From Flavobacteriales bacterium (GTDB lineage Bacteria; Bacteroidota; Bacteroidia; NS11-12g; UBA955), in the NCBI GenBank assembly GCA_947496375.1, contig CANMCY010000001.1, forward strand, positions 70,756 through 134,755: a stretch of DNA of 64,000 nucleotides, written 5' to 3'. The position numbers and the translations under genes are program-made. Position 1 is the stretch's first letter. Each line of letters starts with the position of its first letter. The notes under the pieces were generated by a model. The model saw only the letters and a list, made by a program, of their open reading frames with translations. It ran no database searches and was not told where the DNA came from. Below are positions 9,833 through 49,755 of this stretch, piece after piece.

Positions 9833-10663
9833 GTGGAGCTAAATGCAGCACCGATTGGCGTTTTTGATTCCGGATACGGTGGATTGACCGTACTGAAGGA
9901 ACTGGAAAAAGCGATGCCCGGGTATGATTATTTATACCTGGGTGATAATGCCCGTGCTCCTTACGGTACCCGCTCCTTCGATACCGTTTATGAATATACC
10001 CTTCAGGCCGTAAAATGGCTTTTTGATAAGGGATGTCCGTTGGTTATTCTGGCCTGTAATACCGCCTCAGCAAGAGCCCTGCGGAGTATTCAGCAAAATG
10101 ATCTGTCCGGTATGGACCCATCAAAACGGGTGCTTGGGGTTATCAGGCCCACTGCTGAAATAGCCGGTAAGTTCACAAACACCGGGAGTATTGGCATATT
10201 GGGAACTGAGGGAACGGTAACCTCTCATTCGTACATATTGGAACTGCAAAAATTCTTTCCTGAAGTAAAAGTTTACCAGGAAGCCTGTCCCATGTGGGTA
10301 CCGCTTGTGGAGAATCATGAGCACGATAAACCCGGTGCAGACTATTTTGTAAGGCAACATATAGATCGGTTGACGCAACAATGTGCCGATATTGATGCAA
10401 TATTCCTCGCCTGCACACATTACCCGCTGCTATTGGATAAAATCATGAGATACATACCGGAAGGTATGCAGGTTTTTTCCCAGGGAAGCATCGTTGCAGA
10501 CAGTTTGAAACAGTATTTAGAGCGTCACCCTGAAATTCAGTCGCGGCTTAGTACCGGTTCGAACTGCTATTTTACCACCACAGACCGGGCAGAAACTTTT
10601 GACAGGCAGGCAGCTGTTTTTTATGGGAAGTCAGTTGCGTCGCATCGCATAGAATTGCTGTAA
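9833..10663 (+). CDS. murI: Glutamate racemase
   Basis: IGVFDSGYGGLTVL...ACNTASA...ACTHYP hallmark motifs. GTG start according to the ORF track. Confidence 0.9.
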   Translation: MELNAAPIGVFDSGYGGLTVLKELEKAMPGYDYLYLGDNARAPYGTRSFDTVYEYTLQAVKWLFDKGCPLVILACNTASARALRSIQQNDLSGMDPSKRVLGVIRPTAEIAGKFTNTGSIGILGTEGTVTSHSYILELQKFFPEVKVYQEACPMWVPLVENHEHDKPGADYFVRQHIDRLTQQCADIDAIFLACTHYPLLLDKIMRYIPEGMQVFSQGSIVADSLKQYLERHPEIQSRLSTGSNCYFTTTDRAETFDRQAAVFYGKSVASHRIELL

Positions 10664-10671
10664 CAGCGGAT

Positions 10672-12486
10672 ATGCAGGATCTGTTAAAACAAAGGTTGAG
10701 AACTTTGCCCGAGAAACCCGGGGTTTATAAGTATTTCGACGAAAATGGCGTGATAATATATGTGGGCAAGGCACGTAACCTCAAAAAGCGTGTAAACAGT
10801 TATTTTACCAAGCAGCACGACAACCGAAAAACCGAGGTGCTAGTGAGAAAAATAGCCCATATAGATTTCACCGTAGTAGAAAATGAATGGGATGCTTTAT
10901 TGCTGGAAAATAGTCTGATTAAAGAATTTCAGCCACGGTACAACATCAACCTCAAAGATGATAAAAGCTATCCCTACATTCGGGTAACCAACGAACCCTT
11001 TCCCAAGATTTATGCCATGCGTAACCCTGTTCGGGATGGTTCGCTGTATTTCGGGCCGTATGCTTCCCCCAAGGTAATGCATACCGTGCTGGACCTGGCG
11101 CGAAAACTATATCCCACCAGGAATTGTAATCTTCAGATGACACCCGAAAAAATCGCGCAGGGCAAATTTTCCATCTGCCTGGAGTATCAGATAGGCAACT
11201 GTTTGGGACCCTGTGAGGGGAAACAGTCTGAGGATGACTACAATAACAGTATTCAACAAATAAAACTGCTATTGCGGGGTAATCTTAGCGAAATCAAAAA
11301 ACACCTTCGCACAGAGATGCAGCAAGCTGCTGAATCGCTTAGGTTTGAGGCGGCACAGGTATTTAAAGAAAAGCTGGATGCATTGGAAAACTACCGTCAT
11401 AAAAGCACGGTGGTAACTTCGCTCACCGGAAATGTGGCTGTGTTTAGTGTGTGCAGCACCGAAAAATATGCATTTGTTAATGTTCTTTATGTCGCGGAAG
11501 GAATCATTGTTCGCACCCATAACCTGGAAGTGAGAAAAAAGCTGGATGAAAACGATACGGATATCATGCATCAGGCCATCGCTGAAATGCACATTTTGTA
11601 TGCCGATGAGATACCGGATGAGTGGATTCTGCCATTTCCCCCGGGCCAGGACGAAAATCCGGTTATAAACTGGTCTGTTCCCAAGGCGGGTGACCGAAAA
11701 AAAATTCTGGATCTGAGCGTAAAGAATGCTATGCTATTCCGACAGGAAAAGCTCAATCAATATGAAAAATTGAACCCGGAGGTGCGCATAGACCGTTTAA
11801 TGGAACTAATGCGAAAAGACCTGCGTTTACAGGAGCAACCCCGCCACATGGAGTGTTTTGATAACAGTAATTTTCAGGGGAGCTATCCTGTTTCGGCCTG
11901 TGTGGTTTTTAGAGATGGTAAACCTGCGAAATCCGAGTACAGACATTTCAACGTTAGAACCGTGGAGGGACCTAATGATTTTGCCACCATGCAGGAGGTG
12001 ATAGAACGCCGCTACCGAAGGTTGCTCGAGGAGAACAAGGCATTGCCTCAGCTAATTATTATCGATGGAGGAAAGGGCCAATTGAGTGCAGCGGTGGAAG
12101 TGCTGAAAAAAATGGGCGTTTACGGCAGCGTGGCGGTCATTGGCATCGCTAAACGCCTGGAGGAACTTTATTATCCCGAGGATACCCTGCCACTGTACCT
12201 TGATAAAAAATCAGAAACCCTAAAGGTGATTCAGCAAATGCGCGATGAAGCCCACCGTTTTGGTATAACCCACCATCGCAACAGAAGGAGCAAAGGTCTG
12301 GTGAAATCAAACCTGACTGATATACCCGGAATAGGCCCTGAAACGGCCAGAATGTTGCTTAAAACCTTTAAATCTGCTGCCAAGGTAGGTGTGGCGGGTT
12401 TGGGAGAATTATCTGCCGTTATAGGCGAAAAAAAGGCATCTTTGGTGCATCGGCATTTTCACCCTGAAACCCATGCAAACGGATAA
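10672..12486 (+). CDS. uvrC: Excinuclease ABC subunit C
   Basis: GIY-YIG N-terminus (PGVYKYFD...IIYVGKA), UvrBC region, C-terminal HhH; 604 aa. Confidence 0.9.
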   Translation: MQDLLKQRLRTLPEKPGVYKYFDENGVIIYVGKARNLKKRVNSYFTKQHDNRKTEVLVRKIAHIDFTVVENEWDALLLENSLIKEFQPRYNINLKDDKSYPYIRVTNEPFPKIYAMRNPVRDGSLYFGPYASPKVMHTVLDLARKLYPTRNCNLQMTPEKIAQGKFSICLEYQIGNCLGPCEGKQSEDDYNNSIQQIKLLLRGNLSEIKKHLRTEMQQAAESLRFEAAQVFKEKLDALENYRHKSTVVTSLTGNVAVFSVCSTEKYAFVNVLYVAEGIIVRTHNLEVRKKLDENDTDIMHQAIAEMHILYADEIPDEWILPFPPGQDENPVINWSVPKAGDRKKILDLSVKNAMLFRQEKLNQYEKLNPEVRIDRLMELMRKDLRLQEQPRHMECFDNSNFQGSYPVSACVVFRDGKPAKSEYRHFNVRTVEGPNDFATMQEVIERRYRRLLEENKALPQLIIIDGGKGQLSAAVEVLKKMGVYGSVAVIGIAKRLEELYYPEDTLPLYLDKKSETLKVIQQMRDEAHRFGITHHRNRRSKGLVKSNLTDIPGIGPETARMLLKTFKSAAKVGVAGLGELSAVIGEKKASLVHRHFHPETHANG

Positions 12487-13690
12487 TCACCATACATTGC
12501 TGAAATTGCTGGCAGAGGCACGAAACCACCCTGTGGCCTGTATTTGCCTGTCAAATGGATTTGAAGATCCTTACGGGCAATATGACATCCTGGCAGGGTT
12601 TGGTGCAGTTGCAGAATATCACTCTCCGGAAGAACTGGATAAAAATGATGCACTGAAGCTGGGTTTTTGCAGCTATGACCTAAAAAACATAATAGAACCT
12701 TTAAACTCAGGGCATCCTCAGGCGGTATCGGTTCCGGATTGTTACTTTTTTGAACCTCAGCGGTACTTTAAGCTGAAACGTAACAGCAATAAAGCCGAAA
12801 CCAATATGCAGCTACCTGAGCCGGTGTCCTGCACTCAAACCCGGATCACGCCGGAATTTACCTGCAGCTCTCCTAAAGAACTTTATCTGAATAACGTGGA
12901 CAGCATAAAGGAGTGCATTAGAAACGGGGATTTTTATGAGATGAATTATTGCTTGCAGTTCGAGTGCAACACATGTCTTGATCCGTATTCGCTGTTCGCC
13001 GAATTGAACCAAACGGCTCCGGCTCCATTCGCTGTCTTTTTTAAGTATTTCGATAAATTTTTATTGTGCTCCAGCCCCGAACGGTTTCTCGCCAAAAGAA
13101 AGGATGCACTGACGGCTCAGCCCATCAAGGGAACACGAAAAAGGCATGCAGACGTAACGCAGGATTGGCAGGTTAAAACCGCATTATCAAACAGTGAAAA
13201 AGACCGTGCAGAGAATATTATGATCGTAGACCTGCTTAGAAATGATATGAGTCGTGTCTGCATGCCCGGTTCTGTGCAGGTTCCTGAATTATGTAAAGTA
13301 TATTCATTCAGCCATGTGCATCAGATGATCAGTACTGTTACCGGTCAGTTGCAGGCGAATAAAGGGTTTTCAGATATCATTAAGGCCACTTTTCCTATGG
13401 GTAGCATGACCGGAGCCCCGAAAATTCAGGTCATGAAAGATGTTGAACGGTTTGAAAATTTTAGCCGTGGCTGGTATTCAGGCAGCGTGGGTTACTGGGA
13501 AAACGGTGATTTTGATTTCAATGTAATCATTCGCTCAATTCAGATGGATACGGGCCGCGAGACCATGTATTATCATGTGGGCGGAGCTATCACCTCAGAC
13601 AGTGTTCCGGAAGATGAGTACAAGGAATGTATGGAAAAGGCCGCGGGGTTGTTGCAAACCCTAAAAAATCAGGCCGCTTCGAATTTATAG
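12473..13690 (+). CDS. pabB: Aminodeoxychorismate / anthranilate synthase component I family (chorismate-binding enzyme)
   Basis: Chorismate-binding C-terminal motifs (ENIMIVDLLRND...GSMTGAPK...GGAITSDS); overlaps the uvrC end by 14 nt. Confidence 0.65.
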   Translation: MQTDNHHTLLKLLAEARNHPVACICLSNGFEDPYGQYDILAGFGAVAEYHSPEELDKNDALKLGFCSYDLKNIIEPLNSGHPQAVSVPDCYFFEPQRYFKLKRNSNKAETNMQLPEPVSCTQTRITPEFTCSSPKELYLNNVDSIKECIRNGDFYEMNYCLQFECNTCLDPYSLFAELNQTAPAPFAVFFKYFDKFLLCSSPERFLAKRKDALTAQPIKGTRKRHADVTQDWQVKTALSNSEKDRAENIMIVDLLRNDMSRVCMPGSVQVPELCKVYSFSHVHQMISTVTGQLQANKGFSDIIKATFPMGSMTGAPKIQVMKDVERFENFSRGWYSGSVGYWENGDFDFNVIIRSIQMDTGRETMYYHVGGAITSDSVPEDEYKECMEKAAGLLQTLKNQAASNL

Positions 13691-14358
13691 CCAACGCCTT
13701 TTACCGTGTATATGTAACGTTCATCCAGTTTTTCCCGGATTTTACGCACATGCACATCGATGGTGCGGTCTACCACCAATACCTCATTTCCCCAAACATT
13801 TTCCAATATCTCATCACGACTGAAAACCCTGCCGGGACGGCTTGCCAAAAACGACAGCAATTCAAATTCTTTGCGTGGAAATTGAAGCGATTTGCCCATG
13901 AATTCTACCACGAAACGCTCTCTGTCTATTTTTAAATCTCCAAACTCCAGTGTCTCATGGGAGCTTGACTGGATTGCATTTCTGCGGCGGAGAATGGCCT
14001 TGAGTCTGGACATTAGCACGCGGGGACGTATGGGCTTGGATATATAATCATCTGCGCCTGCTTCGAATCCTGCCAGCTCAGCAAATTCTTCGCTTCTGGC
14101 AGTAAGAAACACGATGGGTATGTTTTTGGTGTCAGTATCTTCCTTTAATTGCCTGCATGCCTCCATTCCATCCATCACAGGCATCATCACGTCCATTAAT
14201 ATCAAATCCGGTTTGATTTTACGGGTTTGCTCAAGTGCCTGAAAGCCATTGGCGGCAATGTGTACCTCAAATCCTTCTTTGTTCAGGGCGTGCCTGATAA
14301 TCTCCAGAATGTCAAGCTCGTCATCAACAACGAGAATTTTTGGCATATTTTTTATCAT
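13669..14358 (-). CDS. OmpR-family two-component response regulator (receiver plus winged-helix); no cognate histidine kinase adjacent
   Basis: ILVVDDELDILE...DLILMDVMMP receiver motifs and a C-terminal wHTH (VDVHVRKIREKL). Confidence 0.85.
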   Translation of the reverse strand: MIKNMPKILVVDDELDILEIIRHALNKEGFEVHIAANGFQALEQTRKIKPDLILMDVMMPVMDGMEACRQLKEDTDTKNIPIVFLTARSEEFAELAGFEAGADDYISKPIRPRVLMSRLKAILRRRNAIQSSSHETLEFGDLKIDRERFVVEFMGKSLQFPRKEFELLSFLASRPGRVFSRDEILENVWGNEVLVVDRTIDVHVRKIREKLDERYIYTVKGVGYKFEAA

Positions 14359-36948: not shown

Positions 36949-37079
36949 TGGGTTCTTAACAGAAAAGTCATATTTCTGTCATAAGCGGAAACTTTTTTTT
37001 AAAATTTATGCAACCTTTGGGGGGTATAGCGTCATTTTTTTAGCTATAATTGCAACAACTACAAACAAATTTTCATACT

Positions 37080-40000
37080 ATGAAGCTAACAATTACCAAA
37101 ATCACCAGAGCGCTAGGCCTTATGGGCATTGGCTTTCTGGCCATGATGCCGGGTGGTTCAAAGGGGCAAATCTGCACCGCAACGAACTCCTGGGGTTGTG
37201 GACACAACTACGGTGGTAACATCGTGGAAATCAAAATCAGCGACAATGGCGGAACGCTTGCAAGCTATTCAGGCTTGGCTTGTTCAACCACCGCAGCAAC
37301 TAACAACGTGCTGGTTAACTCCGGAAATCCTATCGACATTACTGCCGGCCAGGATCTTACCCTGGAAATCACCGGTTCAGTAGATGCTTACGGTTGGGGT
37401 TACCTTACCCGTGTAGGCATCTGGCTTGATTACGATCGCAACAACAGCTTTTCTGCTGCAGAGTGTATCGCCAGTCCTTCCAGCGGTCCTTGGGCCTCTA
37501 TCGGAACCACAGCGGTGAAATCTACGCTGAAGTTGCCTTGCTGGTCTGCTACTGGTGCCAGCACCATGCGTTTCCGTGGTTTCTACTACTACTCTACTGT
37601 AAACACCAGCATGGGTTGCGGTTCACAGAATACCTATGGAAACATTATTGATGTTGCTGTAAACTTAAAAGTGGGTGCTCCTCCTGTGGCCAATTTCATT
37701 GTTCCTACAGGTCCTAACTACGAGAACACTGTGGTTAAGTTTAACGCTGCTAACCCTAACTCAGCTTACACCTACACCTGGACTTATTCAGGTCCTAATG
37801 TAACCCCTGTTTCTACAACCGGAACCGTAGGCCGTGCTATCTGGACCCCCCCCTCGCCACCTGCCACATTCGACGTGAATATGCTGGTGAGCTATTGCGG
37901 TATTAAAGACTCAATTTCAAAATCAGTTACCATTGTTAGTCCTATCAATGTTCCAACGGCTGATTTTATTGCTAAAGCGAATTCCGTGGAAATCTACTAT
38001 GATGCGGAAATGCTGGATCTTTCTACCAACGGTGCATACAAATGGAGCTGGGAAGCAACTTCTCCATCGGGCTCTCTGTATACCAGCACCACTCAAAATG
38101 CTAAATTCTTCATGGATGAAATAGGTAAGTGGGATTTCTGTCTGACTGCTGAAAACAGCAAAGGCGCTTCTACTAAGACCTGCAAAACTCAGTATGTTGA
38201 ATGTACTCCTCCTTCAGAATTTTATATTGGTATCACCACCCTGGGTGAAAACAAAAAAGGTACCCTGTATGATCATGCCGGTCCAACCGCCAACTACAGC
38301 TCAAACCGTAAAACCAGTATCGATTATTTTAAAATTCTCCCTTGCGGTGCCAAAGAAATTCGTTTGAAGTTCAAACAGATTCGTTTTGCTGATGCCAACG
38401 ACCGTCTCCGTATCTACGATGCAGGTCAGGCAGACGCAGGCAAAGAACTGACACCTGCTGCAGGTATCACCAGCGCTAACCAGGCTACTTACCGTAGTTC
38501 AACCTTCACTGCCAAGAGCGGTGCTATGTATATCACTTTCGAATCTAACGCATCAGGTCAGGATTCAGGTTTCATCGCTACATGGGATTCAGATCTCGCT
38601 CCTCCCGTTAAGCCAAATCCATCTTGGTCTACCGTGTACAACCCTGCCGCTATCGGCACTCAGGTTGAATTCAAGAATACTTCTTCCAATGTACAGGGTG
38701 CACCTGCTTGGGAATGGAGCATCGACGGAAATCCTGAAGCTGTTTCAGAAAGCTACACCCGTGTATTCCCCGCAGACGGTACCTACAACGTATGTCTTTC
38801 AGCCACTACCTGTGATGGTGCTGACACTTTCTGCAAAACCATCGATATCGTAACCCCTACTAAGCCAGGTTCATTGGACTTCACTGCCAGCAACGTTCGT
38901 CCTGATGCCGGTAAGACAGTTGACTTTACCATTACTTCTGACTATGCTACCAATTTTGAGTGGAACATTTTCCCAACCAGCTACACTGTAGTTTCAGGTT
39001 CATTGGTAGGTACCAGCAAGAAATTGACTCTTCGTTTCGATCAGGGTGGTTGCTATACCTTTACCCTCAAGGGCTGGAACGCTGCTGAAAACCCTGCAGG
39101 TTCTACCGAGAAAAAAGTGATCAAGAACAAATACGTTTGTGCATTGAACTACTGCATTCCTCTGGTTGATCTTTTAAGTTCTGATATCGGAATCAACAAG
39201 GTTACTTTGACCAAAGGTTCTACTACACTCATCAAAAACGAAACAACCAGCGGTGAAAAAGCATACTCTGATTTCTCAACAACTCAGAAAGCTACCCTCA
39301 CCTTCGGTGCAACTTACACCCTGGATGTAGCTCGTCTGACCAACAGTAACAGTCTTAACTATAAGGCATGGATCGACTTTAACGTTGATGGTGACTTCAA
39401 CGATGCCGGTGAAGAAATCATGAGCACCGGTATGATTAGCGGTTTGGATGCTACTACTACCTTCACAGTTCCTAACAAGTCTGCCAGCTTCGAAGGCAAC
39501 ACACGTCTGCGTGTAGCCAGCAGCTATGGTAACTTTACCAATACCCCCTGCGGTGTAAATACTGTAGGTGAGTATGAAGACTATGGCATTACCCTTGCTA
39601 ATGATGGTGCTGCACCTGTAATTACCCTGATTGGTAAAGATACTCTTTATGTTGAGCGTACCGGTACTTCAAACGGTTGCTGGGCTGAAGTTGCTACTAC
39701 TACTTACACTGCCAATGACCCAACTGAAGGTGACATGACTTCTAAAGTTAATGTTAACTCTGATCTGGATTGTACCATCCCCGGTATCTACAGCATTGAA
39801 TTTACCCTTTCTGATGCTTCAGGCAACAATGCTGTAACTAAGCGTCGTACAGTATACGTAGTACTTGACAGAACTGCTCCTACACTTACCTTGAACGGAA
39901 ATGCAGTTGAGAAAGTAGAACAGTGCGGTACCTACAGCGAGCCCGGTGCAATTGCAACTGACGCAGTTGATGGTAACCTTACTACTGCTGTAATTATCAG

Positions 40001-41150
40001 CGGTTCCGTAAATACCTCAAAAGTTGGTGACTATGTAATGACTTACACCGTAAGTGACGCTCAGGGTAACACTGCTACTAAGACCCGCACAGTTCAGGTA
40101 CGTGATACCAAGAAGCCAGGTATCTTTAGCGTAGGTAACCGTATCGTTAACAACACCATTGTTAAGGTTCAAATCAACAGCGTGTTTGTAGATAATGTCT
40201 ATGCTCAGGATGAGTGTAATGGTGCTATCGATGTAGTTAAGACTGCCGGCTTTAACGGCCCTGTTAATACTGCCATTCGTGCTACTTACCCCATCGTATA
40301 CACTGCTGTAGATCCTAATGGAAACACTGCCGATGAAGATGGTTTCGTAATTAACTATCAGGTGGATGATTACATTGCACCCGAAGTTTCTCTGAACACT
40401 GAGTCTGTAATTTTCCACGACGTAAATACTCCTTATGTATCTCGTAATGTTACCGTAAGTGATAACTTCTACCCGCTGAACAAAGTGAGTGTTGTTAAAA
40501 CCGGAACTGTAGATCCATATACACTGGGTACCTACACTGAAAGCTACACTGCTACCGATGAAAGCGGAAACACCACTACTGCAGTTCGTACAGTAAACGT
40601 GGTAGATCGCATTGCTCCTCAGATTCTTGCTCCTGCCATGAACGTGTGCGTAGGTACTCCTTTCTGGGCCATGAGCGGTCTGGTAATCAGCGACAACTAC
40701 TACTCACCTTCTACCCTGTCTCCTCTGGTATCAGTGTTGAACCACAACGTCAACATTTACGAAGCTGGTGTTTACTACATCAACTATACTCTTTCTGATC
40801 CTAGCGGCAACAAGGCCATGATGGTAACACGTCCTGTGTTCGTAAACTATCCTCCTAACTGTCAGAATACTTACCTGAGCACAGCTAATGTTAGTCTGGA
40901 AGATGCAGTAAGTGTGTTCCCTAACCCTACCAGCGGTAAGGTAACCCTCAGCTACATGCTTCAGAACAGCAAGCCCGTGAGCGTGGAAGTGTTCAACGTG
41001 TCAGGCAGCAAAGTTGCTTCGTTCAATAACCTGAAATCAGGTCTCGGTCACACCGAAATCAACCTGGCTCAGTATGGTAACGGAGTTTACATGATCCGCC
41101 TGAGCAACGACGGACAGACCACAACCAAGCGTGTTGTAGTTAGAAACTAA
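37080..41150 (+). CDS. Giant T9SS cargo protein, paralog 1: signal peptide, Cys-rich NSWGC module, PKD-like modules, CUB-like domain, GEVED-type module (GEYEDYGI), DUF5011-like Ig repeats, Por_Secre_tail CTD
   Basis: Start taken at ATG 37080 (MKLTITKITRALGLMGIGFLAMMPGG) rather than the TTG at 37050. CUB signature RFADANDRLRIYDAG; DUF5011 signature VEQCGTYSEPGAIATDAVDGNLT; CTD FPNPTSGKVTLSY...VYMIRL. Confidence 0.75.
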   Translation: MKLTITKITRALGLMGIGFLAMMPGGSKGQICTATNSWGCGHNYGGNIVEIKISDNGGTLASYSGLACSTTAATNNVLVNSGNPIDITAGQDLTLEITGSVDAYGWGYLTRVGIWLDYDRNNSFSAAECIASPSSGPWASIGTTAVKSTLKLPCWSATGASTMRFRGFYYYSTVNTSMGCGSQNTYGNIIDVAVNLKVGAPPVANFIVPTGPNYENTVVKFNAANPNSAYTYTWTYSGPNVTPVSTTGTVGRAIWTPPSPPATFDVNMLVSYCGIKDSISKSVTIVSPINVPTADFIAKANSVEIYYDAEMLDLSTNGAYKWSWEATSPSGSLYTSTTQNAKFFMDEIGKWDFCLTAENSKGASTKTCKTQYVECTPPSEFYIGITTLGENKKGTLYDHAGPTANYSSNRKTSIDYFKILPCGAKEIRLKFKQIRFADANDRLRIYDAGQADAGKELTPAAGITSANQATYRSSTFTAKSGAMYITFESNASGQDSGFIATWDSDLAPPVKPNPSWSTVYNPAAIGTQVEFKNTSSNVQGAPAWEWSIDGNPEAVSESYTRVFPADGTYNVCLSATTCDGADTFCKTIDIVTPTKPGSLDFTASNVRPDAGKTVDFTITSDYATNFEWNIFPTSYTVVSGSLVGTSKKLTLRFDQGGCYTFTLKGWNAAENPAGSTEKKVIKNKYVCALNYCIPLVDLLSSDIGINKVTLTKGSTTLIKNETTSGEKAYSDFSTTQKATLTFGATYTLDVARLTNSNSLNYKAWIDFNVDGDFNDAGEEIMSTGMISGLDATTTFTVPNKSASFEGNTRLRVASSYGNFTNTPCGVNTVGEYEDYGITLANDGAAPVITLIGKDTLYVERTGTSNGCWAEVATTTYTANDPTEGDMTSKVNVNSDLDCTIPGIYSIEFTLSDASGNNAVTKRRTVYVVLDRTAPTLTLNGNAVEKVEQCGTYSEPGAIATDAVDGNLTTAVIISGSVNTSKVGDYVMTYTVSDAQGNTATKTRTVQVRDTKKPGIFSVGNRIVNNTIVKVQINSVFVDNVYAQDECNGAIDVVKTAGFNGPVNTAIRATYPIVYTAVDPNGNTADEDGFVINYQVDDYIAPEVSLNTESVIFHDVNTPYVSRNVTVSDNFYPLNKVSVVKTGTVDPYTLGTYTESYTATDESGNTTTAVRTVNVVDRIAPQILAPAMNVCVGTPFWAMSGLVISDNYYSPSTLSPLVSVLNHNVNIYEAGVYYINYTLSDPSGNKAMMVTRPVFVNYPPNCQNTYLSTANVSLEDAVSVFPNPTSGKVTLSYMLQNSKPVSVEVFNVSGSKVASFNNLKSGLGHTEINLAQYGNGVYMIRLSNDGQTTTKRVVVRN

Positions 41151-41205
41151 TTAAGCGTTAGCTTATAAAATAAAAAGCCCGGCCTAGTGCCGGGCTTTTT
41201 ATTTT
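40920..41205 (+). repeat. Copy A of a 286-nt near-identical direct repeat (CTD-coding 3' end plus terminator), shared with 45323..45608
   Basis: Only three mismatches noticed (40928 T vs C, a T vs C in TTCAATAAC/TTCAACAAC, a T vs C in GTAGTTAGA/GTAGTCAGA). Confidence 0.85.
41172..41205 (+). terminator. Rho-independent terminator after paralog 1
   Basis: Stem GCCCGGC/GCCGGGC with loop CTAGT, then TTTTTATTTT. Confidence 0.85.
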
Positions 41206-41272
41206 GATAATGTAAGATTAAGTTTTTCATTACATGGTGTATTTATTCTTGTGGCACACAAAACTTTAATGT

Positions 41273-44200
41273 ATGAAAAACAAAAAATTACTTTCATTGC
41301 TCCTGGCGATAATAGCTTTGGGCATCAGTTTCACCGAACTTAAGGCGCAATGCTCTGCCAACAACTCCTGGGGTTGTAACAGTTGGTATGGTGGCTGGGT
41401 TCGCAACATCGGAATCAAGGATGCTGCCGGAGGGACACTTGCCAGCTACACAGGTTTAGGATGTCAATCTTCCAATTCCACCATTAATTCAGGCAGTGCA
41501 ATTGATTTGGTTGCAGGCCAGCAGATCACCATTGAGTTGAACACTGAGTGTTGCCATAACTGGAGCACCGGTGTAGGTATCTGGTTGGATCAGGACAGAA
41601 ATGGAGATTTTACTACCTCAGAATGTATTTTAGATCCTCAGTCATCTTTCTATTCCATTTCCAACAATGCTTCATCGCCTTCGCGAGTAACGTTAACCCT
41701 GCCTTGTTTTACCGGTTCAGGTAAAAGTTTTTTGCGTTTCCGTGCCCAGTCCCATTACAATGGCTACAGACTTTACAATTATCAAGGATGCGGTACCGCA
41801 GATTTCTACGGTAGCACCTATGATGTAGAAGTTAACCTAAAGCGCCTGCCCGATCCTGTGGCTGACTTTGGCGTGCCTACCGGACCCAATTACGAAAAGA
41901 CTACCATTAAATTTCCGGCAACTACCCAGGAAAAGGCCAATTCTTATAGCTGGACCTTTCAGGGTCCGAATGAAACCCCTGTGGTTAATAATGCTCCAAC
42001 AGGCAGAGCCAAATGGTCTCCTGCCTCACCACCCTCTACTCATGATGTAACGCTGAATGTGTCTTATTGTGGTAAAACCAGCACCAAAACCAAAAAGGTA
42101 ACTATAGTTAGACCTACAGCAGCTCCGGTTGCTGATTTTATTGCTAAAAGCAACAGTGTAGAAATTTACAATAACGCCGAGCTGATTGATTTGTCTACCA
42201 ATGGTCCTTACATCTGGGCATGGGAAGCTACTTCACCCACAGGAAATAAATATACATCTTCTCAGGAAGAACCTAAGTTTTATCTGGACGAGGAAGGTAA
42301 ATGGTCTTTCTGCCTTACCTCAGAAAATGGTCTGGGTAAATCTACTAAAGTTTGTAAAACACAATATGTTACCTGCACACCTCCTTCAGAATTCTATATG
42401 GGTCCACAGACTGAAGGACGCAGTGTTAAAGGACTTTTATATGACCATAACGGTCCATCCAGCAACTATGGTAATAATCGCAGAACCAGCATCGATTACT
42501 TTTTGATCAATCCCTGCGATGCCAAAGAAATTCGTCTTAAATTCAAAAGCTTGCGTTTTTGTGATTATCAGGACAGACTTCGTATCTATGACGGTGACCA
42601 AGCCGATCCTGCAAAACTGCTGACCGGCCCAGAGGGTATTAACGGTAATACCTGGTGGAATGACCGCACTAAAACCTATGTGGCCAAATCCGGAAAGATG
42701 TATCTATCTTTTGAAAGCGATAACAATGGCTGTACTGACTCAGGCTGGATTGCCACTTGGGAAACCGATCAGTTTAAGCCGGTTCAAACCATCGCATCTT
42801 ATACCACCAATTACGACACCATCGCAGAAGGTGTAAACCTGGCCATGTTGAACAAAACATTGATAACAGGAACACCAAAATGGTCATGGAGAGTAAATGG
42901 TTCTGAAGAATCCATCTCAAAAGATTTTACCCGTGCATTCAACACGGCTGGTGTTCAGCGTGTTTGTCTGGCTGCCACCAACTGCAGCACTACCGATACC
43001 TTCTGCAAGAATATCCGCGTAGTAACTCCGGTGAGCTCAATGAACAAAATTGACTTCATTACCGACAAAACCCGCAGCGTGCCCGGCGAGAATGTAACGT
43101 TAACCGCCGAGACCAACTACGCAAATAATCTTACCTGGACTATCACGCCCAATACCTATACGTTGGTATCAGGCAGTCTTACGGGTAATTCATCTCAACT
43201 ATTGGTTAGGTTCACTGCCGGTGGTTGTTACACAGTAGAACTGAAGGGGTACAACACTGCCTTAGGTTCTGGTACCACCCGCACCGTTACCAAGAAAGAC
43301 ATTATTTGTGCTATTGACTATTGCACCCCTGTGGTAGATTTGACCAATAGTGATGTGGGAATCAACATGGTTCAGCTATCTTCAAAAGGCAACAACCTGA
43401 TAAACAGAATCAGCAACAGCGGTGTGTCATACACCAATTACGCAGCAACAGACAATGCCACCCTATATTATGGCTCTACTTACAAAGTTAAGGTGGGTAG
43501 AAATACCAACCTGAATCCAATCAACTACAAGGTATGGATTGACTACAACTTTGACGGTGATTTCAATGACAGTGGAGAAACTGTGATGAACAGCGGACGC
43601 ATCAATGGTGTGATTGACAGTGCCTCATTCAAAGTCCCCATGCACACAAATGCGTACCTGGGAAATACCCGCATGCGTGTTGGTGCAAGCTATGGCGCTA
43701 TGTCTAACACACCCTGCGGACTGAACGTGGTAGGTGAGTTTGAAGATTATAGCGTGACATTGACACGGGATAATTCTCAGCCGGTAATCACGCTTACAGG
43801 TTTGGATACGATGTACATAGAGAAAACAGTAGGCGCTACTGCTTGCTGGTCTGAAATCAAGAAAACCACCTACATGGGCGATGATGCCGATCAGGGTGAC
43901 TTGACAGACAGCGTTAAAGTGACCGGTACTTACGATTGCAGCACACCCGGTACTTACAAGCTTACTTTCAATTTGACAGACGCTTCCGGCAATAAGGCCA
44001 TGACCAAAAACCGCGTTCTGATTGTAGAAAACGACCGTACTGCCCCGACCATTGCCCTGCGTGGTAACTCAGTAGAAATGGTAGAACAGTGCGGAATCTT
44101 CTATGATTCAACTGCTACAGCTTATGATATCACCGATGGAAATCTGACCGATTCAGTGAAAGTTTCTGGCAGCGTAAATACCAAAAATATCGGTGATTAT

Positions 44201-45553
44201 GTATTGACTTATACCGTAAAAGATAAAGTAGGTTTGAGTGCTACTGTTACCCGTCTGGTGAAAGTGCGCGATACCAAAGCACCCGGTATTTACCTCGGCA
44301 GCACCCGTATCGTTGATAGCCAGATTGTGAATGTGCAGATTGGCAGCTTCTTCAATGATTACGTGTATGCTTCTGATGAATGTAACGGCTTCACTGCAAT
44401 CCAGAAAATGCCCGGTGCCAAAGGATATGTAAATCCTATGGTGAAAGGTACTTACCCGACTCAGTATTTTGCTACGGATGTAAACGGAAACGTATCTACA
44501 GAGAATGGTTATACTGTTCTTTATAAGGTGGATGACTACATTGCACCTGAGATTAGTCTGAATACGGAAGACACCATAATGCATGATGTAAAAACGCCTT
44601 ACAGTTCTGTAGCGGTTACCATCACTGAGAACTATACAGCGCAGAGCAAGTTGATTACCAGCAAGGTATCCAATGTAAATGCCAATGTGGTAGGTGTGTA
44701 TACTGAAGTGTATACAGCTGAAGACGAAAGCGGCAACAAAGCAACCAAAACCCGCGTGGTAAAGGTGGTGGACCGTTTCGCTCCCGAATTGTTGTTGAAT
44801 TCAGATGCTTACATGATTCATGATGTTAACACAAACTATGTTTCACGTAACGTATCGGTGAGTGACAATTACAGCCCTGTAAGCAAGATTACCGTAGTGA
44901 AAACAGGTACTGTAAATGCTACCGTTCTTGGCACTTACACTGAGACATACACTGCTACCGATGAAAACGGCAACAGCACAACCAAAGTTCGCACTGTGGA
45001 AGTGGTTGACCGTGTTTCTCCCCAGATTCTGGCACCTGCAGTGAATGTATGTATCGGTACTCCTTTCTGGGCAATGAGTGGCCTTACCATCACAGATAAC
45101 TATTATTCTGCTTCTGTATTAGCTCCTTTGGTGACGATCCTGGGTCAAAACATCAATATCTGGGAAGCCGGTGTGTACCATGTTGATTACAGCCTGACTG
45201 ACCCGAGCGGAAACAAGGCCGTGCTGGTAACCCGCCCAGTGTATGTGAATTATCCTCCAAATTGCCAGAACACATTCCTGAACACACAAGACATGGATCT
45301 GGACAAAGCGGTGAGCATTTCGCCTAACCCCACCAGCGGTAAGGTAACCCTCAGCTACATGCTTCAGAACAGCAAGCCCGTGAGCGTGGAAGTGTTCAAC
45401 GTGTCAGGCAGCAAAGTTGCTTCGTTCAACAACCTGAAATCAGGTCTCGGTCACACCGAAATCAACCTGGCTCAGTATGGTAACGGAGTTTACATGATCC
45501 GCCTGAGCAACGACGGACAGACCACAACCAAGCGTGTTGTAGTCAGAAACTAA
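41273..45553 (+). CDS. Giant T9SS cargo protein, paralog 2 (1426 aa; same architecture, one extra DUF5011-like repeat)
   Basis: QCSANNSWGC N-terminal module; CUB motif FCDYQDRLRIYDGD; GEFEDYSV; CTD identical to paralog 1. Confidence 0.8.
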   Translation: MKNKKLLSLLLAIIALGISFTELKAQCSANNSWGCNSWYGGWVRNIGIKDAAGGTLASYTGLGCQSSNSTINSGSAIDLVAGQQITIELNTECCHNWSTGVGIWLDQDRNGDFTTSECILDPQSSFYSISNNASSPSRVTLTLPCFTGSGKSFLRFRAQSHYNGYRLYNYQGCGTADFYGSTYDVEVNLKRLPDPVADFGVPTGPNYEKTTIKFPATTQEKANSYSWTFQGPNETPVVNNAPTGRAKWSPASPPSTHDVTLNVSYCGKTSTKTKKVTIVRPTAAPVADFIAKSNSVEIYNNAELIDLSTNGPYIWAWEATSPTGNKYTSSQEEPKFYLDEEGKWSFCLTSENGLGKSTKVCKTQYVTCTPPSEFYMGPQTEGRSVKGLLYDHNGPSSNYGNNRRTSIDYFLINPCDAKEIRLKFKSLRFCDYQDRLRIYDGDQADPAKLLTGPEGINGNTWWNDRTKTYVAKSGKMYLSFESDNNGCTDSGWIATWETDQFKPVQTIASYTTNYDTIAEGVNLAMLNKTLITGTPKWSWRVNGSEESISKDFTRAFNTAGVQRVCLAATNCSTTDTFCKNIRVVTPVSSMNKIDFITDKTRSVPGENVTLTAETNYANNLTWTITPNTYTLVSGSLTGNSSQLLVRFTAGGCYTVELKGYNTALGSGTTRTVTKKDIICAIDYCTPVVDLTNSDVGINMVQLSSKGNNLINRISNSGVSYTNYAATDNATLYYGSTYKVKVGRNTNLNPINYKVWIDYNFDGDFNDSGETVMNSGRINGVIDSASFKVPMHTNAYLGNTRMRVGASYGAMSNTPCGLNVVGEFEDYSVTLTRDNSQPVITLTGLDTMYIEKTVGATACWSEIKKTTYMGDDADQGDLTDSVKVTGTYDCSTPGTYKLTFNLTDASGNKAMTKNRVLIVENDRTAPTIALRGNSVEMVEQCGIFYDSTATAYDITDGNLTDSVKVSGSVNTKNIGDYVLTYTVKDKVGLSATVTRLVKVRDTKAPGIYLGSTRIVDSQIVNVQIGSFFNDYVYASDECNGFTAIQKMPGAKGYVNPMVKGTYPTQYFATDVNGNVSTENGYTVLYKVDDYIAPEISLNTEDTIMHDVKTPYSSVAVTITENYTAQSKLITSKVSNVNANVVGVYTEVYTAEDESGNKATKTRVVKVVDRFAPELLLNSDAYMIHDVNTNYVSRNVSVSDNYSPVSKITVVKTGTVNATVLGTYTETYTATDENGNSTTKVRTVEVVDRVSPQILAPAVNVCIGTPFWAMSGLTITDNYYSASVLAPLVTILGQNINIWEAGVYHVDYSLTDPSGNKAVLVTRPVYVNYPPNCQNTFLNTQDMDLDKAVSISPNPTSGKVTLSYMLQNSKPVSVEVFNVSGSKVASFNNLKSGLGHTEINLAQYGNGVYMIRLSNDGQTTTKRVVVRN

Positions 45554-45608
45554 TTAAGCGTTAGCTTATAAAATAAAAAGCCCGGCCTAGTGCCGGGCTT
45601 TTTATTTT
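45323..45608 (+). repeat. Copy B of the 286-nt near-identical direct repeat
   Basis: See copy A. Confidence 0.85.
45575..45608 (+). terminator. Rho-independent terminator after paralog 2 (same hairpin as after paralog 1)
   Basis: GCCCGGC-CTAGT-GCCGGGC, then a T-tract. Confidence 0.85.
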
Positions 45609-45675
45609 ATACACATTTAATGTTACATTTATTTTTTTTATAAATATTGTCATTATTATTGAAAATATTTCAATT

Positions 45676-48600
45676 ATGAAAATAAAAATACTACTTAAGT
45701 TTATTGCTTGGGCGGCATTTATCGGTTTTAATTTACCGGATGCCCATGCTCAGTGTTCTGCCAGCAACTCCTGGGGTTGTGGCGGATGGTACGGGGGTGA
45801 CTTGCAGTCCATTGTGGTGAAAGACGCTGCCGGTGGAACACTGGCCAGCTACACCGGTTTAGGATGTGCCTCATCCAATAGAACTTTAAATACAGGTAAA
45901 CCAATAGATTTGGTTGCAGGCCAGCAAATTACCATTGAAGTTGCAAATAGTGGTGGAAACTGGTCTACCGGCGTAGGTATCTGGCTGGATCAAAATTTTG
46001 ATGGTTCTTTCTCAACCTCAGAGTGTATTTTAAGTCCTACCAGTACTTTTTACACTACCTCCAGTAATCCATCTGCACCTTCCAGGGTAACCATTACCCT
46101 GCCTTGCTGGTCCGGAAGTGGCAAGAGCTGGCTTCGTCTTAGAAGCTTGTCTCACTACACCTATGGCTTAGGCACAGGATCAGGATGTGGTACTGTAACA
46201 GGGTATGGATCTATCAATGATATTGAGGTAAATATGAAGCGTTTACCCAATCCAACTTCAGATTTTAACGTGCCCCGTGGTCCAAACTATGAAAGGACTA
46301 CCATTAAGTTTCCTGCCAGCAGTCAAGATCCTGCTTACACCTATAGCTGGACATTTGCCGGACCTAATGTTACGGTAGTAAATAACGCTTCTTCAATAGG
46401 CCAAGCGAAATGGTCTCCGGTATCACCTCCGAGCACGCATGATGTAACACTGAATGTATCGTATTGTGGTGTATCGGCCACCAAAACCAAACAGATAACG
46501 ATAGAGCAGCCAAAGGCAGCCCCTGTGGCAGATTTCATCGCCAAGAAGAACAGTGTAGAGATCTATAACAATGCAGAACTGGTGGATTTGTCTACCAATG
46601 GGCCTTACAGCTGGGTATGGGAAGCAGTTTCCCCTGCCGGAAATCTGTATACATCAGGGCAGCAGAACCCATTGTTTTTCCTCGATGAGGTGGGTAAATG
46701 GAATTTCTGTCTGACCTCACAAAACGGACTTGGCGTATCTACTAAGGTTTGTAAAAACCAGTATGTGGAATGTACGCCCCCTACAGAATATTACATGGGA
46801 CCGCAGACAGTAGGTGAAAGTTCAATAGGTATGCTGTATGACCATGCAGGTCCGTCACAGAACTATACCAATAACAGACGAAACAGCATTGACTATTTCT
46901 TGATAAAGCCCTGCGATGCGAAAGAGATTAGATTGAAATTTAAGAGTCTGCGTTTTTGCGATAACGGCGATATCTTGAGAATATACGATTCTGAGTTTGC
47001 CGATCCTGCCAAACAGTTAACCCCTTCAACGGGCATCAACGGCAGCAATTGGAATTTCTATAGAACACAGACATTCAAGGCCACCAGCGGCAGGATGTAC
47101 CTGACTTTTGAAAGTAATTCATCATGTGTAGATTCGGGCTTCATTGCGCTATGGGAATCAGACCGTGCTAAACCAATTCCTACACTTAGTTCATTTACCA
47201 ATAAGTACGATACAATTGCAGAGGGAGTAAATTTGACTTTTATTAACAAAACCATTATCACGGGTACGCCCAACTGGTCATGGCGCGTCAATAATACCGA
47301 GGAGTCAACTTCCAAAGAGTTTTCGCGTACGTTTACTGCATCGGGAGCTCAGAAAGTATGTCTGGTTGCCGGCAATTGCAGCAGTTCAGATACATTCTGT
47401 AAAACCATTCGTGTGGTACCGCCTTCATCTTCCATGGCGAAGCTGGATTTTGTTTCAGACAAGGTACGTGTAATTCCCAATGAAACGGTTACCTTAACGG
47501 CGGAGACCAACTTTGCCGATAACCTGGAATGGGTAATCACTCCGAACTCTTATACTTTGGTATCAGGCAATTTGATAGGCAACAGTTCACAGATACAGTT
47601 CAAGCCCACATCGGGTGGATGTTTTACTGTGGAGTTGAAAGGATATAACAGTTTGCTTGGATTTGGTACGGCAAAAACCGTAATCAAAAAAGAGATAGTG
47701 TGTGCAGTTGATTATTGCACGCCTGTGGTAGATCTGACCAATTCAGATGTTGGAATAAACATTGTAGAACTGCTTGAACAGGATACCTTCCGGATCAATA
47801 AGACGAGCGGAAGCGGTGTGTCATACAGCAACTTTATGAGCACGGACAAAGCATCCTTGAACTTTGGCGCGAGCTACAAGGTTAAAGTGGGTCGTTTTAC
47901 CAACATCAACCCGATCAATTACAAGGTATGGATAGATTTTAATATTGATGGAGACTTCGATGATGCGGGAGAAACGGTATTAACCTCGGGTAAAATCAGT
48001 GGATTTACGGACAGTGCTACGTTCCGGGTTCCGCCTTTTGCCCGCGCATTTGAAGGTCTGACCCGCATGCGTGTGGGTGCCAGCTATGGATCGCTGGATA
48101 ACTATCCTTGCGGAGTGAATGTTGTGGGTGAATTTGAGGATTATGGAATTACACTGCTTCGGGATAACTCCAAACCAGAAATTACATTGCTGGGTGGAGA
48201 TACCATCTACGTAGAAAAGATCGGTACAGCAGGTGGCTGCTGGGCTGAAGCTAAGAAAACGACTTACATGGGCGAAGACGGCCATGAGGGCGATTTGACG
48301 GACAGTGTAAAGATTAGCGGAACATTCAATTGCAGTGTGGCCGGAACCTATAAACTGGAGTTCAACCTCACCGATGCATCGGGCAACCAGGCAGATAAAA
48401 AGACGCGCTTACTGATTGTAGAAAATGACCGTACCCGTCCGTCCATCACGCTTCGTGGAAAGGCGCTGGAAAATATTGAGCAGTGCGGAACATTCTATGA
48501 TTCATTGGCCACTGCATTCGATAAGACAGACGGAAACCTAACCGATTCAATCAAAGTGATTGGCAGTGTGAATACCAATGTGATTGGGGATTATGTATTG

Positions 48601-49698
48601 ACCTATACGGTAAAAGATAAAGCCGGATTGACAGCGTCAGTTAAAAGAACAATCAAGGTTCGCGATACCAAAGGTCCCGGTATATTTATCGGAGGCAGCC
48701 GTATACTCGATAGTCAGGTGGTACAGGTGCAGATAGGAACCATCTTCACCGATTATGTATATGCCGAAGACGATTGCAACGGGTATACAGAGATTCGTAA
48801 AATGCCGGGAGCTAAGGGGACTGTGAACGCTACCGCGAAGGGATCGTACCCAACACGCTATTTTGCTACCGATATTAATGGAAATGTATCACCGGAGAAT
48901 GGATACACGCTGATATACAAGGTTGATGACTTTGTAGCCCCTGAGATAGAGCTGAATACACAGGATACAATCTATCATGATGTGAAGACCGATTACGTTT
49001 CACGCAGCGTAACCATCCGCGAGAATTACTCATCACCTCTGTTGGTGAAGACTACCAAGAGCAGCAATGTGAATGAGAATGTTTTGGGTGTGTATCAGGA
49101 GGTGTTCACGGCAGAGGATGAGAGCGGCAATAAGGCCATCAGAACCCGTGTGGTGAAGGTAGTGGACCGCACAGCCCCGGATTTGCTGGGCGGCAACATC
49201 ACAACCTGCGTGGGTGACCCCTTCTGGGCGATGAGCGGCCTTCACGTTATCGATAACTACTACGACTCAGCCGCGCTGATGCCCAGGGTGAAAGTGGTAA
49301 GCCACAACGTGAATATCTGGGTGAAGGGAATCTACTTCATTAATTATTCACTGACAGACCCAAGCGGTAACGCTTCCAAAATGATTAGCCGTGACGTGCA
49401 CGTGTTGCCTCAGGGAGAATGCTCCAGCACTTATTCAGGAGTTAGTAATTTAACCGCTGACGGAATCCGGGTATACCCCAATCCTACTGCTGGTTCGGTA
49501 CAGATAGATGCCGGTAAACTGCAAAGCAGCATAACTGCTGTGGAAGTGTGGGACAACAGTGGTCGCATGCTGCACAGTGTGAAATCTACAGGAAATATAA
49601 CCACCTTGCAGCTGAATGCATACGCAGCGGGTGTATATACCCTGAAAATTAAGACTGCAGACCGCACTTGGGTTAAACCGATCATATTGAATAAATAA
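45676..49698 (+). CDS. Giant T9SS cargo protein, paralog 3 (1340 aa; same architecture, distinct CTD)
   Basis: QCSASNSWGC; CUB motif FCDNGDILRIYDSE; GEFEDYGI; CTD RVYPNPTAGSVQID...VYTLKI. Confidence 0.8.
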   Translation: MKIKILLKFIAWAAFIGFNLPDAHAQCSASNSWGCGGWYGGDLQSIVVKDAAGGTLASYTGLGCASSNRTLNTGKPIDLVAGQQITIEVANSGGNWSTGVGIWLDQNFDGSFSTSECILSPTSTFYTTSSNPSAPSRVTITLPCWSGSGKSWLRLRSLSHYTYGLGTGSGCGTVTGYGSINDIEVNMKRLPNPTSDFNVPRGPNYERTTIKFPASSQDPAYTYSWTFAGPNVTVVNNASSIGQAKWSPVSPPSTHDVTLNVSYCGVSATKTKQITIEQPKAAPVADFIAKKNSVEIYNNAELVDLSTNGPYSWVWEAVSPAGNLYTSGQQNPLFFLDEVGKWNFCLTSQNGLGVSTKVCKNQYVECTPPTEYYMGPQTVGESSIGMLYDHAGPSQNYTNNRRNSIDYFLIKPCDAKEIRLKFKSLRFCDNGDILRIYDSEFADPAKQLTPSTGINGSNWNFYRTQTFKATSGRMYLTFESNSSCVDSGFIALWESDRAKPIPTLSSFTNKYDTIAEGVNLTFINKTIITGTPNWSWRVNNTEESTSKEFSRTFTASGAQKVCLVAGNCSSSDTFCKTIRVVPPSSSMAKLDFVSDKVRVIPNETVTLTAETNFADNLEWVITPNSYTLVSGNLIGNSSQIQFKPTSGGCFTVELKGYNSLLGFGTAKTVIKKEIVCAVDYCTPVVDLTNSDVGINIVELLEQDTFRINKTSGSGVSYSNFMSTDKASLNFGASYKVKVGRFTNINPINYKVWIDFNIDGDFDDAGETVLTSGKISGFTDSATFRVPPFARAFEGLTRMRVGASYGSLDNYPCGVNVVGEFEDYGITLLRDNSKPEITLLGGDTIYVEKIGTAGGCWAEAKKTTYMGEDGHEGDLTDSVKISGTFNCSVAGTYKLEFNLTDASGNQADKKTRLLIVENDRTRPSITLRGKALENIEQCGTFYDSLATAFDKTDGNLTDSIKVIGSVNTNVIGDYVLTYTVKDKAGLTASVKRTIKVRDTKGPGIFIGGSRILDSQVVQVQIGTIFTDYVYAEDDCNGYTEIRKMPGAKGTVNATAKGSYPTRYFATDINGNVSPENGYTLIYKVDDFVAPEIELNTQDTIYHDVKTDYVSRSVTIRENYSSPLLVKTTKSSNVNENVLGVYQEVFTAEDESGNKAIRTRVVKVVDRTAPDLLGGNITTCVGDPFWAMSGLHVIDNYYDSAALMPRVKVVSHNVNIWVKGIYFINYSLTDPSGNASKMISRDVHVLPQGECSSTYSGVSNLTADGIRVYPNPTAGSVQIDAGKLQSSITAVEVWDNSGRMLHSVKSTGNITTLQLNAYAAGVYTLKIKTADRTWVKPIILNK

Positions 49699-49720
49699 TT
49701 GATTGCACCATAGGCAAAAG

Positions 49721-49755
49721 AAAAACCCGACAATTTATTGTCGGGTTTTTCTTTT
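49721..49755. terminator. Bidirectional rho-independent terminator between paralog 3 (+) and convergent lysC (-)
   Basis: Stem ACCCGACAA/TTGTCGGGT with loop TTTA, flanked by an A5 tract on the left and a T-tract on the right. Confidence 0.8.

Follow-up and report, generated by a model that had tools for sequence, protein, structure and literature searches.

A 64,000-nt stretch of DNA from a Flavobacteriales bacterium (contig CANMCY010000001.1; here the window, with positions counted from its first nucleotide) carries three tandem genes on the same strand, p1, p2 and p3, which encode proteins of 1340–1426 aa. The 3′ ends of p1 and p2 form a 286-nt near-identical repeat that spans codons of the C-terminal domain (CTD), the stop codon, a short spacer and a predicted terminator. 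We conclude, at a probability of roughly 0.9, that this repeat is the footprint of a recent, non-reciprocal interlocus gene conversion between the tandem paralogs p1 and p2, and each defining feature of interlocus gene conversion that was examined here is present in the pair. An original prediction made from the sequence alone had proposed recent gene conversion limited to the CTD end and terminator, and it is borne out by inverted ortholog and paralog distances, a synonymous divergence (dS) of 0.059 within the CTD and an overwritten 21-nt non-coding spacer. The features on which the argument turns are listed below.

40920..41205, + strand: repeat copy 1 (donor of the 3′ part or more); final 76 p1 codons, stop codon, 21-nt spacer and terminator
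45323..45608, + strand: repeat copy 2, recipient; the same module at the p2 end, 283/286 identical to copy 1
37080..41150, + strand: p1 coding sequence, 1356 aa; candidate signal peptide, two GEVED domains, PKD, four Bact_surface_Ig-like domains and Por_Secre_tail
41273..45553, + strand: p2 coding sequence, 1426 aa; architecture like that of p1 but with five immunoglobulin (Ig)-like domains; mosaic
41151..41171, + strand: p1 post-stop spacer TTAAGCGTTAGCTTATAAAAT, non-coding; copied into p2 at 45554–45574
41172..41205, + strand: predicted p1 intrinsic terminator; stem AAAAAGCCCGGC / GCCGGGCTTTTT, loop CTAGT, T-tract to 41205
45575..45608, + strand: predicted p2 intrinsic terminator; same sequence as the p1 terminator

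A near-identical module at the ends of two diverged genes

Ungapped comparison of 40920–41205 with 45323–45608, at an offset of 4403 nt, gives 283 identities over 286 nt, in agreement with the predicted near-identical repeat with only three differences. The mismatches fall at 40928, 41027 and 41141, each with a T in one copy and a C in the other, and in the codon alignment all three are synonymous third-codon positions. The breakpoints are sharp. At the 5′ edge, codon 40917–40919 reads TTC (Phe) in p1 and TCG (Ser) in p2, while at the 3′ edge the first differing base is 41206 (G versus A), the first base past the T-tract, so that the identity stops at the end of the T-tract as had been proposed. 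The 20-nt blocks beside the tract are 50–85% identical upstream and about 30–50% identical, the level of random sequence, downstream. Pairwise alignment, the check that had been suggested, therefore gave a sharp drop in identity at both tract edges rather than a divergence in the CTD similar to that elsewhere.

The identity of the tract is not due to chance. At the local background identity of 0.66, the binomial probability of at least 283 identities in 286 positions is about 1e-46, and the p1/p2 codon alignment contains a perfect run of 113 nt, whereas 2000 permutations of its columns never gave more than 31 and the rest of the pair gives at most 18. An independent repeat search of the window also recovers the p1/p2 pair (family D1). 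Outside the tract the paralogs are strongly diverged, with whole-gene identities in codon alignments of 60% (nucleotide) and 55% (protein) for p1/p2, 63% and 64% for p2/p3, and 54% and 49% for p1/p3. Third-position identity among the paralogs is about 0.35–0.43, near saturation. The 70–80% identity that had been given for the sequence upstream of the repeat was too high for the full-length genes, as p1 and p2 are 60% identical over their whole length and reach 66–71% only in the final 300–400 nt ahead of the tract.

The coding part of the tract corresponds to a known sorting domain. By their C-terminal domain matches, p1, p2 and p3 are predicted to be type A cargo of the type IX secretion system (T9SS): the C-terminal scores against TIGR04183 are 48.4, 46.0 and 46.5 bits for p1, p2 and p3 (cut-off 23), and those against PF18962 are 51.1, 46.9 and 41.5 (cut-off 27). 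The tract begins two codons inside the Pfam Por_Secre_tail match, which starts at residue 1279. Since the T9SS CTD is cut off during export, the homogenized segment would contribute nothing to the mature protein. Downstream of the stop codons, the p1 and p2 hairpins each consist of a GC-rich stem followed by a T-tract and are thus predicted Rho-independent terminators. Both were also found in a terminator scan, and their predicted RNA folds reach –30.5 kcal/mol (z = –5.9) for p1 and –31.3 kcal/mol (z = –6.9) for p2.

Relatedness inside and outside the tract

To place the repeat among its relatives, we collected genomes from a scan of species-representative genomes plus the cluster members of p2. 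The syntenic locus was found in metagenome-assembled genomes (MAGs) of uncultured freshwater Flavobacteriales/Bacteroidota, with the order DsbD-like, LysM/glucosaminidase, array, amino-acid kinase, FBPase and RecO. Five assemblies belong to the lineage of the window, namely the window itself and L024, L025, L028 and L029. L026 and L027 represent a sister lineage, the same as that of the MAG JBEDNI (L001, L004, L008), and L002 is the next relative after it. The window copies of p1 and p2 are called W_p1 and W_p2 where they are compared with their orthologs.

Over the 228 nt of the CTD, W_p1 and W_p2 differ at 3 sites, while W_p1 differs from its orthologs at 12–17 sites and W_p2 from its orthologs at 11–21. 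Over the 300 nt upstream of the tract, the two paralogs differ at 96 sites, against 27–29 between W_p1 and its orthologs and 28–37 between W_p2 and its orthologs. Since the paralogs are closer to each other within the tract and the orthologs are closer in the flank, the relationship inverts at the tract edge. A four-sequence alignment with L002 gives the same picture site by site: the CTD sites all show the paralogs of the same genome alike, with no orthology patterns, and orthology patterns are abundant in the flank. Synonymous sites are homogenized as well. By the Nei–Gojobori method (NG86), the p1 and p2 CTDs have a dS of 0.059 and a nonsynonymous divergence (dN) of 0, whereas in the gene bodies dS is saturated and dN is 0.45; the CTD dS to the closest orthologs is 0.22–0.30. 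Neighbor-joining trees of separate segments (N-terminal, Ig, post-Ig and CTD) are incongruent in where they place p2. The CTD is the only segment in which p2 nests within the p1 clade, beside the p1 of its own genome; the Ig5 and post-Ig domains of p2 fall outside every p1 ortholog.

The non-coding part of the tract can be traced through the same genomes. The 21-nt spacer and the terminator are identical between the window copies. The p1-type spacer (…CGTTAGCTTA…) also follows p1 in L002, L004/L026 and L010 (L010_a), while the spacer after the p2 stop codon in L002, L026 and L027 is TAATCCGAATAAGTTATCAC..., unlike the p1 spacer in those genomes. The window and its four siblings instead have the p1-type spacer after p2. 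This converted p2 end is common to all four siblings, which come from different samples, and the one sibling that also covers the relevant part of p1, L024, shares the copy-specific bases of the window, namely a T at 40928 that is confined to p1 and a C at 41141 that is confined to p2. The W_p2 tract is closest to the p1 of its own lineage (0–5 differences).

These patterns also give the direction of the exchange. The 3′ part of the tract was copied from p1 to p2, because the W_p2 spacer is of the p1 type and site 41129 carries the p1-type G in W_p2 (G in every p1; A in L026_p2 and L002_p2). The exchange was non-reciprocal, since p1 is unchanged, with its spacer and the intergenic region behind it both retained, and the region downstream of p2 is from 45609 on still orthologous to the p2–p3 spacer of L002 and L026. 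The latest event covers at least about 40949–41175, which is the range of sites necessarily overwritten or co-inherited, and at most 40920–41205. It is later than the split from the L026/L027/JBEDNI lineage, for which the ortholog divergence in the flanks is about 9% and in which the p1 and p2 CTDs differ at 23/228 sites (L026/L027), and within the window's lineage it is fixed, being present in every assembly sampled. The event thus predates or accompanies the diversification of these five assemblies. The differences at 40928, 41027 and 41141 are what point substitutions acquired after the conversion would look like, and that at 41027 occurs in the window's p1 alone.

Several observations weigh against a simple reading of the tract as one recent copying event from p1 to p2. 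The CTD also evolves slowly between species, with a dS of 0.22 between the window and L002 against 0.6–0.9 in the body, so part of the CTD similarity is conservation and not conversion. In the 5′ half of the tract, sites 40969 and 41006 match the L026_p2 state and not that of L026_p1 or L002_p1, which may reflect homoplasy or an earlier transfer from p2 to p1, and for this reason the direction is firm for the 3′ part only. The exact end points of the latest event are inseparable from the edges of an older homogenized block. Finally, it is formally conceivable that the donor p1 came from a closely related cell through transformation.

Other explanations, recurrence and mechanism

The slow evolution of the CTD raises the question of whether conversion is needed at all. 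If the CTD and terminator were under very strong purifying selection, on the protein and perhaps on the RNA, the two copies might never have diverged. Several data fit this: p1-type CTDs share 93–99% protein identity across species while the bodies share 66–94%, the terminator hairpin is kept in all p1-type orthologs, and the between-species dS of the CTD lies below that of the body in several pairs. However, the within-genome CTD dS is well under the CTD dS between species, the same two CTDs have diverged at 23 sites in L026/L027, and the non-coding spacer, which is the same after both genes in the window, differs between p1 and p2 in L002 and L026. Moreover, identity at fourfold-degenerate CTD sites among distant p1 orthologs is unexceptional relative to the rest of the 3′ third of the gene, and Rfam gave no match. 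We therefore regard conservation without conversion as very improbable. Equally small is the chance of an assembly artefact, in which a repeat collapsed or was cross-polished in a short-read metagenome assembly. The repeat does interfere with assembly, as L025 starts within the p1 CTD, L018 and L023 end within it and L004 ends 76 nt past it. Yet the same converted p2 end is present in the window, L024, L025, L028 and L029, whose samples and pipelines differ; the window and L024, with both copies fully covered, retain the p1-specific T at 40928 and the p2-specific C at 41141; and L002 has an independent, partly decayed homogenization (7/228).

The remaining alternatives concern the source of the shared sequence. 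Both genes could have acquired a mobile or widely shared 3′ cassette of CTD and terminator independently from a third source, and the modular nature of CTD-coding ends, together with the coincidence of tract edge and domain edge, would suit such a cassette. The searches speak otherwise: a degenerate 39-nt CTD pattern matched only 10 metagenome contigs, with all nine that had readable upstream sequence being of the p1 type, and a CTD-only protein search returned just two short fragments. The 64-kb window contains no third copy, the tract has no flanking inverted or direct repeats, and the p1 end is orthologous to the p1 ends of all relatives, which leaves an outside cassette very unlikely. Alternatively, the 3′ part of p2 could have come from p1 by an ancient unequal crossover, with the CTD and terminator still undiverged today. 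The p1 ancestry of the p2 Ig5, post-Ig domain and CTD agrees with this, as does the match of the intergenic region downstream of p2 to the p1-to-p3 spacer of two-gene arrays. But the duplication is old, because in the adjoining p1-derived segment dS is saturated and 32% of the nucleotides differ. In addition, the ancestor shared with L026 and L002 had another p2 spacer, and similarity within the genome is greater than that between orthologs. An undiverged leftover of the duplication is thus extremely improbable as an account of the tract, although the old duplication is likely to be the source of the homology that later conversions exploited.

Two further candidates were considered and rejected. 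The long cross-species identity had suggested a hidden RNA element or a 3′-derived small RNA in the CTD, but fourfold-site identity is no outlier there, and an Rfam search of the whole window returned no match. A seeming hint of such an element in L007, where the CTD contrasts with the rest of the gene, stems from an unusually diverged L007 gene body, with flanking genes that are not diverged. A CTD cassette shared with other gene families was dismissed as well, as the metagenome DNA scan gave p1-type genes only.

Homogenization of p1 and p2 is seen outside the lineage of the window as well. In L002, the p1 and p2 CTDs form a homogenized block of their own, with 7/228 differences and a dS of 0.12. 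Its 5′ edge is the same as in the window, and it ends at the stop codon, with the spacer still of the p2 type. We consider the L002 homogenization to be older, independent and partly decayed. In L026/L027, we saw no recent homogenization event in the p1 and p2 CTDs. The terminator loops after both p1 and p2 in the L026 lineage read CCTTGT and not CCTAGT, and the close relative L004 has CCTAGT after p1; the shared loops in L026/L027 may reflect a very short, terminator-only homogenization or coincidence.

In the molecular pathway that we infer, the donor would be intragenomic and the edges of the tract would be limited by homology. The p1 3′ module (CTD codons, stop codon, 21-nt spacer and intrinsic terminator) would have been copied over the matching p2 module, with the gene bodies that encode the mature proteins left diverged at about 55% protein identity. 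An old homogenized block, kept alike by strong purifying selection on the p1-type CTD, whose dN across species is 0.006–0.05, would be the sole stretch similar enough for RecA-type recombination, and later events would extend as far as the limit of this block. The conserved terminator hairpin would serve as a second homology anchor at the 3′ end, such that the heterologous spacer between the two anchors would be carried across. Because later events would fill an older block, the shared 5′ edge in the window and L002 need not mean that independent events had identical end points.

A more far-reaching proposal is that homogenization is both recurrent and selected: p1 and p2 would be kept on an identical sorting signal while their exposed parts diversify, p3 would use a second, fast-evolving CTD, and the repeats would act as hinges for gain and loss of array genes. 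The basis offered for it is that the events in the window and L002 share a 5′ edge at the CTD boundary. We consider this proposal unlikely. If it were true, a single T9SS route for sorting or attachment, or a single level of expression, might be common to p1 and p2, alongside the identical terminator that both have in the window's lineage.

Base composition may bear on the conversion process as well. GC content at third codon positions (GC3) is 0.63–0.67 in the converted CTDs (40920–41147 and 45323–45550), against 0.42–0.45 in the gene bodies, and it is 0.45 in the p3 CTD. Among p1-type CTDs, GC3 is highest in genomes with two copies of that CTD. The raised GC3 of the tract resembles the effect of GC-biased gene conversion, which is described in bacteria (PMC4450053), but the single-copy CTD of L007 also has a GC3 of 0.62, and the 3′ parts of array genes are generally richer in GC3. 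The signal is thus only suggestive of GC-biased conversion.

Array history and what the tract means

Beyond the tract, the array has a longer history of rearrangement, for which the following features are needed.

45676..49698, + strand: p3 coding sequence, 1340 aa; own divergent type A CTD, outside the repeat
49716..49755, + strand: p3 terminator, AAAAACCCGACAA-TTTA-TTGTCGGGTTTTT; sequence different from the p1/p2 terminator
44774..44800, + strand: p2 mosaic junction (approximate, from trees and alignment), …VVKVVDR / FAPELLLNS…, between Ig-like domains 4 and 5

Each paralog combines GEVED domains with four or five domains of the bacterial surface Ig-like class (DUF5011-type), while the PKD matches in p1 are weak. 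Hydrophobic N-termini are visible by eye in the translations, for example MKNKKLLSLLLAIIALGISFTELKAQ, as candidate signal peptides. The mechanically called open reading frame of p1 begins at TTG 37050, and the ATG at 37080 matches the conserved start of the orthologs, MKLTITKITRAL. A sigma-70 promoter scan gave 25 matches against 25.4 expected and is uninformative, as Bacteroidota promoter motifs differ.

The p2 gene is an old mosaic. Its N-terminal ~1090 aa group with p3 (68% identity, against 51% to p1), as does its Ig4 (70% identical to p3 Ig4 and 53% to p1 Ig4). Its Ig5, however, is 67% identical to p1 Ig4 and 47% to p3 Ig4, and the post-Ig domain shares 68% identity with p1 and 38% with p3. 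In window positions, p2 is p3-like to about 44776 and p1-like from about 44800, and the fifth Ig-like domain arises because the junction sits one domain out of register. The intergenic region downstream of p2 is orthologous to the p1-type/p3-type spacer of two-gene arrays (L003, L011). Judged by its sequence, this arrangement is consistent with an out-of-register unequal crossover in a p1–p3 tandem. The p2 segments branch deeper than the sampled orthologs, so p2 may go back to an old array of three genes, some of which were lost later, or it may have arisen by a later duplication and diverged fast.

Comparison of the neighborhood across L003, L005, L006, L007, L010, L011, L015 and L021 with window positions 37080–49698 shows that the array holds 1, 2 or 3 genes depending on the species. 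The single-gene states are derived, because L010 and L007 carry deletion scars. In L010 (14038–14610), a p3 pseudogene consists of about 90 N-terminal codons with stops fused to the last ~35 p3-type CTD codons and the p3 terminator, and in L007 (14035–14185) the p1 terminator is followed about 20 nt later by a p3-type terminator. As reconstructed from these scars, neither deletion involved the CTD repeats. As for the suggestion that the repeats are substrates for varying copy number, the count does range from 1 to 3 among relatives, but the deletions that could be reconstructed bypassed the repeats. The CTD repeats remain plausible substrates for deletion or duplication of the 4.4-kb unit. Among the five assemblies of the window's lineage we saw no p2-deletion or p1/p2 chimera variant, and all keep the three-gene layout. 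The spacer types were also tried as a means to tell a CTD–CTD deletion of p2 from an ancestral two-gene state in L003/L011 and were set aside, as the L003/L021 spacer resembles both about equally.

The p3 end had been described as carrying an unrelated CTD and terminator. For the terminator this is correct, p3 having a separate terminator of different sequence at 49716..49755. For the CTD it is wrong at the family level, since the p3 CTD matches TIGR04183 at E = 2.7e-12 and is 28–30% identical in protein sequence to the p1/p2 CTD. The p3-type CTD (49471–49695) evolves fast: comparing the window with L002, its dN is 0.164, whereas the p3 body has 0.038. The p1-type CTD is nearly frozen (dN 0.006–0.011). 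One array thus contains two type A sorting domains with opposite evolutionary regimes. In L007, the p1 ortholog (9956–14035) has 66–69% protein identity to the p1 of the window with a CTD still at 93%, and the flanking DsbD and FBPase genes are 84–94% identical; the L007 p1 body appears to be hypervariable or replaced, with the CTD retained.

The repeat also has consequences for assembly. Contigs break in or near it at the start of L025 and at the ends of L018, L023, L004 and L001, and the repeat fragments short-read assemblies of the locus. L017 (Ga0256307_1002152) is 97% identical to window positions 37064–41131 and then, at its positions 4069–4262, departs from the CTD 19 nt before the stop codon and enters GC-rich sequence that is unrelated; the contig is probably a metagenome chimera joined at the repeat.

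Concerted evolution in bacteria is exemplified by tufA/tufB in Salmonella and by rRNA operons. Interlocus gene conversion of bacterial paralogs has been surveyed across prokaryotes (PMC6053082), and the p1/p2 tract shares with it a non-reciprocal and homology-dependent exchange, paralogs more alike than orthologs within the tract, sharp breakpoints and homogenized synonymous sites. What sets the tract in the window apart is that it comprises one terminal domain and a non-coding terminator in otherwise saturated paralogs, and it carries a 21-nt heterologous spacer between two homology anchors. A second parallel is found in Porphyromonas gingivalis, where the adhesin modules of the T9SS cargo paralogs RgpA, Kgp and HagA are shuffled and the CTD is conserved (PMC5266723). 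In both systems, Bacteroidota T9SS surface paralogs have exchanged or rearranged domains by homologous recombination and kept a CTD of ~80 aa. In P. gingivalis, however, the adhesin modules are exchanged and the loci are dispersed, whereas in the window the CTD and terminator are exchanged, the mature parts are divergent and the genes are tandem. The domain itself is ordinary, as all three paralogs match the T9SS type A CTD (TIGR04183 / PF18962) at their extreme C-termini, with p1/p2 and p3 representing two sub-types that are about 30% identical and evolve at very different rates.

The process is thus of a known kind, and it reveals no new mechanism or system. Its value lies in showing, in a natural case that is well resolved, how small a bacterial conversion tract may be and how a terminal domain and a terminator hairpin, both conserved, can serve as two homology anchors, in uncultured freshwater Flavobacteriales that lack genetics. 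The finding matters for the annotation, assembly and phylogeny of array genes rather than for mechanism. Trees of T9SS cargo that are based on the CTD will mislead, and the mosaic nature of p2 means that orthologs and paralogs among these giant surface proteins have to be assigned segment by segment.

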